Shown: positions 1 through 1,945 of the stretch, piece by piece | How positions within the stretch are numbered: position 1 is the first letter of the stretch | Layout of the letters: each line of letters starts with the position of its first letter | From: Escherichia coli | Lineage (GTDB): Bacteria > Pseudomonadota > Gammaproteobacteria > Enterobacterales > Enterobacteriaceae | Reading direction: 5' to 3' (one strand) | Assembly (NCBI RefSeq): GCF_003334815.1 | Contig: NZ_QOWO01000086.1 | Length of the DNA: 3,095 bases | Position numbers and translations under genes: made by a program | The notes under the pieces: model-generated | Database searches by the model: none | What the model was told of the DNA's origin: nothing | Seen by the model: the letters and a program-made list of their open reading frames with translations, nothing else

Positions 1-378
1 AATCGCTCCCCTGCGGCGACTCTTGTCATAAGAGTGCCGGAGCGTTTTTCCATCAATTGCAATGACGTCTTTATCATCTGAAGAATGGCAGTCACGCATC
101 CAGTTAATAAAGCACTCGTGAAATTTTGCAGGACTGATACAGGATACAACTCTGGCAATGGTATCGTGAACAGGAATACCATTTTCAAAATCACCATATT
201 GCTTCAAAAAATCGGGATGTGTTTCCCCAAAATCCTCTATATCTTCCCAGCCTTCTGCACCAGAAATAACGGCACAAATAGTCAACAGTAGAATATCCGA
301 TAACTTATGTTCCATTTTCCAGGCTTGTCTGTAATCGGGGATAATAGAAATATGTCCCATCAATTTTTTAAGTTCCAT
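1..378 (-). CDS. ISAs1-family transposase (H-repeat-associated protein), N-terminal 126 codons; the rest of the gene lies beyond the window start
   Basis: Absent from the ORF track because there is no stop in the window. ATG at 378-376 is preceded by AAGGAG (plus 385-390) with a 6-nt spacer, and the frame is open to position 1. My hand translation: [126 protein letters not shown]. This is colinear with the N-terminus of the 862..1608 ORF at about 60% identity by hand alignment. It matches my memory of E. coli H-rpt (YhhI-type) ISAs1 transposases; not searched. Confidence 0.85.
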
Positions 379-440
379 TTTGTTCTCCTTAATTATGTAA
401 GGAGTATTTGATCATGTGTAAGCAATAAAAAACAGCTTTA
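1..440 (-). mobile_element. ISAs1-family (H-repeat) insertion sequence, copy A, partial; the upstream boundary near 440 is approximate
   Basis: Contains the transposase start (378) and about 60 nt of upstream leader. The leader shares a TGATCAAA-containing block (plus 407-414) with the leader of the second copy (plus 1652-1659). Terminal inverted repeats could not be defined by eye. Confidence 0.55.
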
Positions 441-463: not shown

Positions 464-1608
464 TTAAACATAAAATGCGAATTGTTTAGTACAAAAAGTG
501 AACTTCTGATGATCTTTCCCTGTGTTTAACGCAGCCTTCTTTCTTTTCCTCTTCACCCTTAATGTCTTTGCAATCTCTTAATAAATTCAGTGCCATCTTC
601 TTTATTCCAGATATTATTTAGGCTGCGTTTCCTCTTCTTATCCGGCTGGCATCTTCATTCATTTTTACATCTAACACCCAATGAAGACTGTGCTCGATCA
701 GCCAGTGCGCTCTGATAGCATGTGCAAATTCTTTAGCATCCATATCCTTTGATGAAATATAATATCGGATGCTTACACCTTCTGCTGATTTATCTTCTTT
801 CTTCTGCCTGAATGACAATGCTACACAAAGCTTTTTTAATCCCTTCCATTCGAATTCAAAATCACAAAAGTTCAGGCGTTACGTTACTGACAATATGCAA
901 ACGTGTTTCTTTTCTTCCATGACTTATCTCCTGCGTACTAAACGAATCGCCTTTATAATTAGAAAACACATTTACAGGAAATTTTTCCTCGAATGCATGA
1001 TGTAATTTCCCCTGATTGCCTTTTACTGCCAGAAGATAATCTGCTTTTTTATCTTTGATCTTCGAAGCGATATCTTTCTGACAGCCCATAGCATCAATGG
1101 TTATCAAATTTTTCTTTAAATACAGTAGGTTAAGCAACTCTGGAATGGCTGTAATCTCATTACTTTTGGCTTCCGTTTTCACCTGCCCCAGTACAACACC
1201 ATTTTCGTTCGAGAATGCACTCACCATATGGATTGCTCCTTTTCTTTTTCCCTTATCAAAGGAGCCTCTTATGGTCTTTCCATCTATTGCTATAATTTCA
1301 CCATCAGTGATTTCATGGCACTCCTGCATCCATTCAATAAACATCTTTTCAAAGGCCAAACTGTCAATGTTACTCACAACGCGTGCAATGGTGTCATCGA
1401 CCGGAATGCCATTATCAAAATCACCATATTTCTTTAGCCATTCAAGTCTTTCATGTCCAAAATCTTCAATTTCCTGCCACTCATCGGCACCTGCAATTAC
1501 TGCACATACGGTGAGAAACAAAATAGCAGATAATTTATGTTTAACCTTTCCTTGTTGTCGTATATCAGGGGTCACTGAAATATAATCAAGCAGACTTTGA
1601 ATACTCAC
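464..1608 (-). pseudogene. ISAs1-family transposase (H-repeat-associated protein), disrupted: +1 frameshift near 861-864, in-frame TAA at 618-620, second frameshift near 555-560
   Basis: Track ORF 862..1608 (248 aa, MSIQSLLDYISVTPDIRQQGKVKHKLS...) is the N-terminal two thirds; the start is GTG at 1608 with AAGGA 6 nt upstream. After TPELL the protein continues in the +1 frame as [25 protein letters not shown]...[29 protein letters not shown] (track ORF 618..818, whose reported M is a TTG). This is interrupted by TAA at 618-620 where homologs have Glu. The same frame then reads IISGIKKMALNLLRDCKDIKG. A further frame change gives VKRKRKKAALNTGKD... and a stop at 464-466. Total span is about 381 codons, matching a full-length ISAs1 transposase of roughly 378 aa (length from memory). 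Confidence 0.8.
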
Positions 1609-1683
1609 CTGGCGTCCTTTTTTATCTTTTTAGTTATTCCAAAGGTTAAATTTTGATCACCTGTAGGCGTTAAAGCAAAGATG

Positions 1684-1709
1684 AAAATCGTGATTTACAT
1701 CACAATTTT
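1684..1709 (-). repeat. Imperfect inverted repeat / hairpin (11-nt arms, 4-nt loop); candidate weak terminator for the rhs-immunity transcript or an IS-end structure
   Basis: Plus strand reads aaaatcgtgat-ttac-atcacaatttt. On the minus-strand RNA the arms AAAAUUGUGAU / AUCACGAUUUU pair fully with one G:U wobble. It lies about 80 nt downstream of the small-ORF stop (1790) and about 75 nt upstream of the copy B transposase start. The stem is AT-rich and the U-run is inside the stem, so it is weak as an intrinsic terminator. Confidence 0.2.
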
Positions 1710-1789
1710 CATGATCTTGCCCTGCCCCGTCCCTTGCTCTCATGTCTTTCTGTATGTATTTTATATTTTTCTCTTTCTGGTGTTGTTCA

Positions 1790-1945
1790 TTATGACCATT
1801 TACCAATCCAGTCAAAAACTTCATTTTTCAAATTGTTATCATAATAATCAACATCATAATAGTCTCCATAATTAATTATTTTATAACTAGCCTTCTTGTT
1901 TTTATCACTAAAATACACCCGTTGTTTTGTAGCGCAGAACTCCAT
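1790..1945 (-). CDS. Small hypothetical protein (51 aa from ATG 1945; 62 aa if GTG 1978 is used); status uncertain, possibly a frameshifted 3' extension of the immunity gene
   Basis: Track ORF 1790..1978; the reported M at 1978 is a GTG. Internal ATG at 1945-1943 is preceded by GGAG (plus 1949-1952, 3-nt spacer). Peptide MEFCATKQRVYFSDKNKKASYKIINYGDYYDVDYYDNNLKNEVFDWIGKWS. It is AT-rich like the neighbouring immunity gene and I see no family resemblance. Confidence 0.3.
   Translation of the reverse strand: MEFCATKQRVYFSDKNKKASYKIINYGDYYDVDYYDNNLKNEVFDWIGKWS

Follow-up and report, generated by a model that had tools for sequence, protein, structure and literature searches.

Two insertion sequences at the RhsE locus

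The stretch of Escherichia coli DNA analysed here (3,095 nucleotides, the window) carries two transposase genes in tandem, and the leaders ahead of their start codons raise the question of how such genes are controlled. A first-pass annotation had noted a short motif common to both leaders and a hairpin in one of them, and had proposed that these are the terminal inverted repeats of the insertion sequence (IS), promoter elements, or a terminator insulating the IS from rhs-operon read-through.

Compared with complete E. coli genomes by megablast, the whole window matches K-12 strains at 99.9% and is the K-12 RhsE locus, with the minus-strand order rhsE' – ydcD – yncI – ydcC given by the MG1655 annotation, in which rhsE' is an RHS core protein fragment. 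Differences from MG1655 are substitutions at 163 and 1593 and one A missing from an A-run at about 1993-1997, a 1-base deletion that splits ydcD into ORFs 1969-2271 and 1790-1978; ydcD is annotated as frameshifted in O157:H7 SS17 too. yncI is annotated in MG1655 as an 'ISAs1 family transposase' pseudogene, for which PMC6001520 gives the gene name, and ydcC as an 'ISAs1-like element ISEc5 family transposase'. Both elements are insertion sequences of the ISAs1 family that follow rhsE-ydcD in tandem: the NCBIfam ISAs1 model NF033564 scores 415 bits with the ISEc26 transposase and 411 bits with that of ydcC (cut-off 70), and the PGAP names agree with this assignment.

The ydcC element is ISEc5-like and 1291 bp long, and the window holds the 5' part of its transposase gene (1-378, minus strand, identified by annotation and family model; ATG at 376-378), which extends beyond the window edge. 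yncI (523-1608, minus strand, by annotation and alignment) is the body of a decayed ISEc26, with one frameshift and one stop, that lacks the terminal ~80 bp including the right repeat. Its start region (1606-1619, minus strand, from annotation and predicted folds) comprises the Shine-Dalgarno (SD) sequence AAGGA at 1615-1619 and a GTG start at 1606-1608. The intact relative is the ISEc26 of O157:H7 (locus L004), 1305 bp long and encoding a 390-aa transposase. Alignment of the two elements begins at the first base of the yncI element and stops ~80 bp short of the end, where the yncI element is truncated and adjoins the left end of the ydcC element at 522/523.

An ISEc5-like element directly against a truncated ISEc26-like element is seen in several E. 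coli lineages (window 522/523; L003 1501-1737; L005 1537-1832), in which the relic ranges from ~1.2 kb in K-12 to 236 bp in EC21Z-101 and is internally deleted in O104:H21; this recurrence suggests repeated or ancestral insertion or deletion at the spot. The junction between the ydcD 3' flank and the IS, including the small gene yncO, lies at different chromosomal positions, the RhsE locus in K-12 and beside yafV in O157:H7 (L004 1386-1571), from which it follows that the IS moves as part of the Rhs tip and not by its own transposition. ISEc26-type transposases are also encoded on short MAG contigs labelled Sporosarcina, Bacillota, Planococcaceae and Flavobacterium (L006-L009), with protein 94-95% identical to that of E. 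coli and a left-end leader nearly the same as the E. coli ISEc26-type leader; these are probably assembly or binning contamination.

Ends of the elements

Both leaders start with CAGGGnAAGATCAT, running from 1724 to 1711 in yncI and from 522 to 509 in ydcC. Motif search places the left terminal repeat (IRL) of the yncI element, CAGGGCAAGATCATGAA, at 1708-1724 (minus strand) with a GATC Dam site at 1713-1716, and that of the ydcC element, CAGGGAAAGATCATCA, at 507-522 (minus strand) with GATC at 511-514. The boundary is fixed by diverged copies in other genomic contexts (H55/H56), which begin matching exactly at CAGGG. Plain MAFFT alignment of the two leaders misaligned these ends, and anchoring on CAGGG and GATC was required. 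The ydcC element is bounded by CAGGGAAAGATCAT and, on the right, by CAGGGCAAGATTAC, this right repeat lying at L001 3232, which gives the length of 1291 bp, and overlapping the stop codon. The terminal repeats of intact ISEc26 measure 17-18 nt, with 94% complementarity; the yncI copy retains the left end only. No clear direct repeat indicative of a target-site duplication flanks either element in the compared sequences, and none is expected at the ydcC element since it adjoins a truncated IS. Gammaproteobacterial ISAs1 elements carry the terminal repeat CAGGGCAAGATCAT, whereas CAGGGCAAACGCAT or a similar repeat, without GATC, is found elsewhere, in Bacteroidota, Firmicutes, cyanobacteria, Planctomycetota and others (loci L010-L085).

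This comparison of the leaders with IS ends disposes of the proposal that the motif and the hairpin are themselves terminal inverted repeats. The true ends are 1708-1724 and 507-522; the hairpin occupies IS nt 13-44 and the motif IS nt 66-73 of the yncI element, and the hairpin reaches into the 17-nt repeat only with its outer arm, over the inner 5 nt.

A conserved Dam-site box in the transposase leader

The motif TGATCAAA is indeed shared by both leaders, with exactly two minus-strand matches in the window, at 407-414 and 1652-1659. This count is by itself weak evidence for a shared element, given a chance expectation of 0.31 per window and at least two matches in 9 of 200 shuffles; the two sites are, however, at homologous positions in a family-wide alignment. 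For this alignment we located the left ends and start codons of 80 loci encoding relatives of the ISEc26 transposase in a species-level genome collection. In 17 non-redundant gammaproteobacterial ISAs1-family leaders, from Escherichia, Entomohabitans, Pseudocitrobacter, Cedecea, Vibrio, Rheinheimera, Shewanella, Parashewanella and Legionellales, TGATCA is nearly invariant in sequence that is otherwise not alignable. The distance from this box to the start codon is 31-41 nt, and 49 nt in ISEc26. Relative to the G of GATC, A(+6) is present in 16/17, T(+7) in 14/17 and T(+10) in 14/17; the family profile also places T-tGAC between -21 and -17 and a pyrimidine run from +10 to +18.

In yncI the GATC box defined by the family alignment, GTGATCAAAATTT (1648-1660, minus strand), holds the motif at 1652-1659, a Dam site at 1655-1658 and -10-like candidates, and in ydcC the box TGATCAAATACT (403-414, minus strand) holds the motif at 407-414, GATC at 410-413 and the -10-like hexamer AATACT at 403-408. 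The TTGCTT described ahead of each motif can be seen at 420-425 and 1673-1678, but its distance from the motif differs, being 5 nt in ydcC and 13 nt in yncI. We rejected it as a shared homologous element: only the yncI copy is at the family -35 position, and the ydcC copy lies 8 nt nearer the motif. The yncI copy (1673-1678, minus strand) is a candidate -35-like hexamer by sequence inference only. It is at most 1 base off the family T-tGAC position, 21-16 nt upstream of GATC, it begins 2 bases past the 3' arm of the hairpin, and it varies to TGGCTT in intact ISEc26 and TTGGTT in the L003 relic.

The spacing typical of the family, from TTGAC to nATAnT, is 20 nt; an alternative extended -10, TGa-TCAAAT, would give a spacer of 17 nt but put an unfavourable C at -11. 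Scanning for the sigma-70 consensus returns no match for yncI and a different pair, TACACA-17-CATAAT, for ydcC. The GATC box is probably the -10 region of the transposase promoter, carrying a Dam site. The earlier suggestion of a promoter element survives in this form, in that the box fits it by sequence conservation. A 23-nt imperfect inverted repeat, 74% complementary (1527-1549 with 1641-1663; L004 1598-1620 with 1711-1733), ties the GATC-box region to transposase codons ~20-27 in the K-12 and O157 copies and may be due to chance.

In IS10, IS50 and IS903, the transposase promoter and the recognition of the ends are both under the control of Dam methylation. In the window, both copies carry one GATC within the left repeat (IS nt 9-12) and another in the box, so that it is found in a terminal repeat and over the putative promoter, the sequence arrangement expected of Dam-regulated IS control. 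The right repeats are without GATC, reading GAGC in ISEc26 and GATT in ydcC. Among the relatives, 18/21 gammaproteobacterial elements have GATC in the left repeat compared with 0/29 in other phyla (Fisher p = 7e-11), a contrast confounded by phylogeny, and the same confounding attaches to the leader GATC, found 20-75 nt before the start in 18/21 and 4/29, respectively (Fisher p = 4e-7). Extra GATC sites lie on or beside the -35-like element in Vibrio and Legionellales leaders. Retention of GATC in leaders that are otherwise unlike matches the pattern of IS10, IS50 and IS903, and by analogy we infer that replication-coupled hemimethylation would gate transposase expression and end-binding here as it does in those elements.

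Predicted masking of the ribosome-binding site

Predicted folds of the leaders indicate a further point of likely control. In ydcC an anti-SD segment, CUCCUUA (398-404), comes right after the -10-like hexamer and pairs with the SD sequence UAAGGAG (385-391) through 7 bp, in the hairpin CUCCUUA-CAUAAU-UAAGGAG (385-404, minus strand). Equivalent SD pairings are predicted in most relatives, including those in Enterobacteriaceae, Rheinheimera and Legionellales, and are made by other sequences (CUCCC/GGAGA, UUCCU/GGGAA, GCUUCU/AGGAGC, UUCUUUU/AAAGGAA and UGCCUU/AAGGCG). In ISEc26/yncI it is ACGCCUACAGGUG (~1660-1672), upstream of the box, that is predicted to pair with GGACGCCAGGUG, the segment containing both SD and GUG start. 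RNAs like those of read-through fold with predicted energies of -5 to -15 kcal/mol, compared with 0 to -3 kcal/mol for RNAs from an assumed transcription start site, placed ~7 nt after the -10-like hexamer. With the start at this assumed position, the anti-SD, after the box in ydcC and before it in yncI, would pair with the ribosome-binding site (RBS) only in transcripts entering from outside, and by the logic of IS10 and IS50 such read-through RNA, its RBS masked, would not be translated. On these predicted folds we infer that RBS masking would provide IS10/IS50-style protection against read-through.

A covarying stem-loop inside the left end

The hairpin first placed at 1684-1709 with 11-bp arms is real but larger. 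Repeat search and folding define a subterminal stem-loop at 1681-1712 (minus strand; IS nt 13-44), with 14-bp arms at 1681-1694 and 1699-1712 and the loop GUAA. In yncI the arms are 93% complementary around this 4-nt loop, the sole mismatch being a G·U on the transposase-sense strand. Folding energies bear the structure out: a 91-nt RNA has -30.5 kcal/mol (z = -5.1) and 0/200 shuffles are as stable, while the ydcC leader is without comparable structure (z = -0.05).

The stem is maintained as its sequence changes. Intact ISEc26 has a perfect 14-bp stem and a perfect 32-bp palindrome. The L003 relic, only 73% identical, also has a perfect stem, AUUAAAGUUGUGAU/AUCACAACUUUAAU, with 3 compensated pairs, and near-identical copies form the series C-G (O157), U·G (K-12) and U-A (L007) at one pair. 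A relic in an O-antigen cluster (L002) has one further compensated pair, three G·U pairs and one mismatch. In the six distinct copies, pairing extends to 98.8% of cells and both sides have changed at 4 pairs, a level of pairing and covariation reached by 0/500 shuffles; registers slid along the same sequences pair at 32-51%. Most of the ISEc26-type copies compared are pseudogene relics. The covariation argues for selection or palindrome-templated repair. On the antisense strand, where each G·U is replaced by A·C, pairing is 92.9%, compared with 98.8% on the transposase-sense strand. This contrast rests on four transitions, of which three belong to one relic and the fourth to near-identical relic copies, that of K-12 among them, and it leans towards RNA on the transposase-sense strand.

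Unrelated hairpins occupy the same place in other lineages, namely Vibrio, Legionellales, Shewanella and one Bacteroidota group. The Vibrio hairpin is CCCUUAU-N3-AUAAGGG after CAGGGCAAGATCATGAAAA, and that of Legionellales a stem of ~20 bp starting from nt 7-9. In 49 non-redundant left ends the first 60 nt fold with z < -2 in 18%, against 4.5% of control windows (Mann-Whitney p = 0.001). We considered and rejected a hairpin universal to the family, as it is present in some lineages only and the ISEc5/ydcC type has none; between the two elements of the window it is confined to the ISEc26 lineage. The subterminal hairpin is recurrent but lineage-specific, and it is a feature of the left end only, the right end being coding and without a counterpart. 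A metagenome scan for CAGGGNAAGATCATNAAA gave 120 stretches, of which only 10 then had a recognisable ISAs1 transposase, and almost no new hairpin variants; the remaining stretches are probably chance matches to the 16 specified bases. A search of plasmids found near-identical copies only, and no Rfam covariance-model match up to E = 1 is present anywhere in the window.

Function of the stem-loop

The stem-loop sits between a co-oriented upstream operon, the ydcD stop being 78 nt away, and the -35-like hexamer, and it has the form GAAAA-stem-UUUUC, the architecture of a symmetrical terminator, which a lenient consensus scan flags as terminator-like. By this position, insulation of the IS from rhs read-through, as the first-pass annotation had it, is the most economical reading; what counts against a terminator in the usual sense is an AU-rich stem, a poor U-tract and a negative discriminant. 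Only 3 of the 14 pairs are G-C, and the tail, C(C/U)U(G/U)GCUUU across the variants, reads CUUUGCUUU in yncI, or UUUUCAU when only the upper 7 bp are counted. A discriminant of the d'Aubenton-Carafa type, calculated with modern energy parameters, is negative on both strands and lies between -12 and -70 for every variant, whereas two canonical terminators score +22 and +36. On this score we rejected a strong intrinsic terminator, which would moreover have a G+C-rich stem leading directly into a U-tract. The same-place hairpins of other lineages disagree over the strand that carries a U-run: it is the sense strand in Legionellales, the antisense strand in Vibrio, and elsewhere neither, so that 'terminator' is not a uniform reading across the family.

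Transcript ends have been mapped in E. coli by several methods. The parts of the curated Term-seq tables consulted (PMC7815308, Adams 2021) list no 3' end between 1,524,476 and 1,552,652, a locus that may be poorly expressed, and the portions of the ROSE, Cappable-seq, SMRT-Cappable-seq and TERMITe data examined contain no transcript ends for it.

Our best guess is that the stem-loop marks the IS boundary as a weak barrier to transcription in both directions. It would act at the RNA level, as an A-tract, stem and U-tract that cause weak termination or a pause in either direction, limiting transcription that comes in from rhsE-ydcD and possibly also transcription that goes out; this is the least certain step of the model.

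Transcription out of the IS also bears on a different possibility, which concerns the small protein YncO. yncO (1690-1875, plus strand, PGAP annotation) encodes 61 aa from a GTG at 1690 that lies within a hairpin arm, with an in-frame ATG at 1681. The ORF crosses the IS end and enters the 3' end of ydcD; it is a junction ORF to which the IS and the flank both contribute, and its product has no NCBIfam match. YncO is among the proteins detected with an SPA tag after chromosomal tagging (PMC6001520 Table 1), and with the start codon inside the hairpin this means that outward transcription across the IS end exists; ydcD-yncO is in addition listed as an overlapping-transcription pair (PMC12288877).

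The hairpin might then close an outward-directed antisense RNA comparable to the RNA-OUT of IS10, as its 3' stem-loop or its terminator. Such an RNA would start from a consensus TATAAT found by motif scan at 1581-1586 (plus strand), a perfect antisense-strand hexamer spanning +23 to +28 of the transposase ORF, pass over the start codon, SD and leader, and end with the hairpin and UUUUCAU by the IS tip, YncO being translated from read-through transcripts. In ydcC a consensus scan finds TTTCCA-18-GATAAT (316-345, plus strand) at the equivalent place, followed on the same strand by the terminator-like hairpin at 385-404, and in the Vibrio relatives the unrelated GC-rich hairpin abuts a conserved UUUUCAU on the antisense strand only. 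These antisense promoter-like elements, 23-39 nt into the two transposase ORFs, fall within conserved codons (D/H-Y/H-I-S), and the -10-like hexamers may therefore reflect coding constraint; promoter-like matches in the window number 10, compared with 9.8 in shuffles. The terminator discriminant is negative on the antisense strand too, the G·U pairs favour the sense strand (the 98.8% against 92.9% above), and no antisense RNA is documented for the locus. On balance we consider this reading, the main rival to a barrier, unlikely. A broader version, in which stem-loop and outward promoter form an RNA-OUT-like regulator with YncO as by-product, or the stem-loop is a structure-specific recognition element that is confined to the left end and makes transposition asymmetric, is in our view improbable.

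The palindrome could instead act as double-stranded DNA, a site beside the -35 for a dimeric protein, either the N-terminal domain of the transposase, for autoregulation or marking of the left end, or a host nucleoid protein. The perfect 32-bp palindrome of the intact element would suit such a site, as would its stopping 2 bases ahead of the -35-like hexamer and its occurrence at the left end only, expected of an operator; its outer arm moreover re-uses the inner terminal repeat (ATGAAAA / TTTTCAT), as the Legionellales palindrome re-uses IS nt 7-20. A sequence-specific operator is nevertheless hard to reconcile with four positions that change symmetrically while the sequence itself is unconserved, with the G·U intermediates tolerated, or with unrelated stems at the same place in other lineages, which are typical of nucleic-acid structure, and we give the DNA site a low probability.

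Template switching in quasi-palindromes generates changes that look compensatory. That the hairpin is without function for the IS, being a quasi-palindrome kept by such template switching or a host-selected rhsE-ydcD terminator inside a dead IS, is improbable: it would sit well with the relic state of most compared copies, with the same ydcD-IS junction carried in different E. coli loci and with a significantly stable first-60-nt fold in only 18% of family members, but the hairpin is perfect in the intact, transposase-encoding ISEc26, and same-position hairpins recur in independent lineages at a rate above that of the controls (18% vs 4.5% at z < -2, p = 0.001).

A model for the left end

Followed inward on the minus strand, the left end consists of the Dam-site repeat, the stem-loop (in the ISEc26 lineage only), the -35-like hexamer, the TGATCA box, the SD leader and the start codon. 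The sequences establish what the two elements are, where they end, that the box is conserved and that the stem covaries. The interval as a whole would be the left-end control region of a decayed ISEc26, with the second motif copy in the corresponding region of the ISEc5-like ydcC element, combining a promoter box, protection against read-through and a hairpin barrier, a composite reading drawn from conservation and predicted folds whose chances we put at about even.

The elements themselves are familiar. The H-repeat (H-rpt) of E. coli Rhs loci (ISEc1/ISEc5/ISEc26; also ISAs1 of Aeromonas and IS1358 of V. cholerae) comprises the same elements, with ISAs1-family transposases, units of 1291 bp and 1305 bp, CAGGG-type repeats and a position at the Rhs 3' end, and the copies here are no different from them. 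The GATC box, the GATC of the left repeat and the covarying hairpin have no description in the searchable literature, a search that omitted the original H-rpt and IS1358 papers; ISEc26 appears there in genome surveys only, and no study of ISAs1-family ends or promoters was found.

The closest parallels for control are IS10/Tn10 and IS50/Tn5, which share with the ISAs1 left end GATC in the repeat, GATC at a -10-like box, a segment upstream of the predicted transcription start that is predicted to pair with the RBS, and a possible outward promoter just inside the ORF. They differ in that the transposases belong to another family, the hairpin here is upstream of the promoter and not in the mRNA leader, and the right end is without GATC; the likeness in control is one of sequence. 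The symmetrical GAAAA-UCGUGAU-GUAA-AUCACGA-UUUUC also resembles a bidirectional intrinsic terminator, lying as it does between the convergent or overlapping units ydcD and yncO, but it differs from such terminators in having an AU-rich stem with 3 G-C pairs, only four U and a negative discriminant.

The left-end features belong to ordinary IS biology, in a family that has received little study; there is nothing new in what the elements are, and the current understanding of IS biology is unchanged by them. They do explain the origin of an annotated K-12 small protein, YncO, as the product of an ORF that runs from an IS end into its flank. ISAs1-family elements, the H-repeats of Rhs loci and copies in O-antigen clusters among them, are widespread, and their regulation and transposition are essentially unstudied. 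What is added is a modest, testable model of ISAs1 silencing, in which a Dam-site box conserved from Escherichia to Vibrio, Shewanella and Legionellales, masking of the RBS and a covarying boundary hairpin would together keep these elements quiet and shielded from neighbouring transcription.
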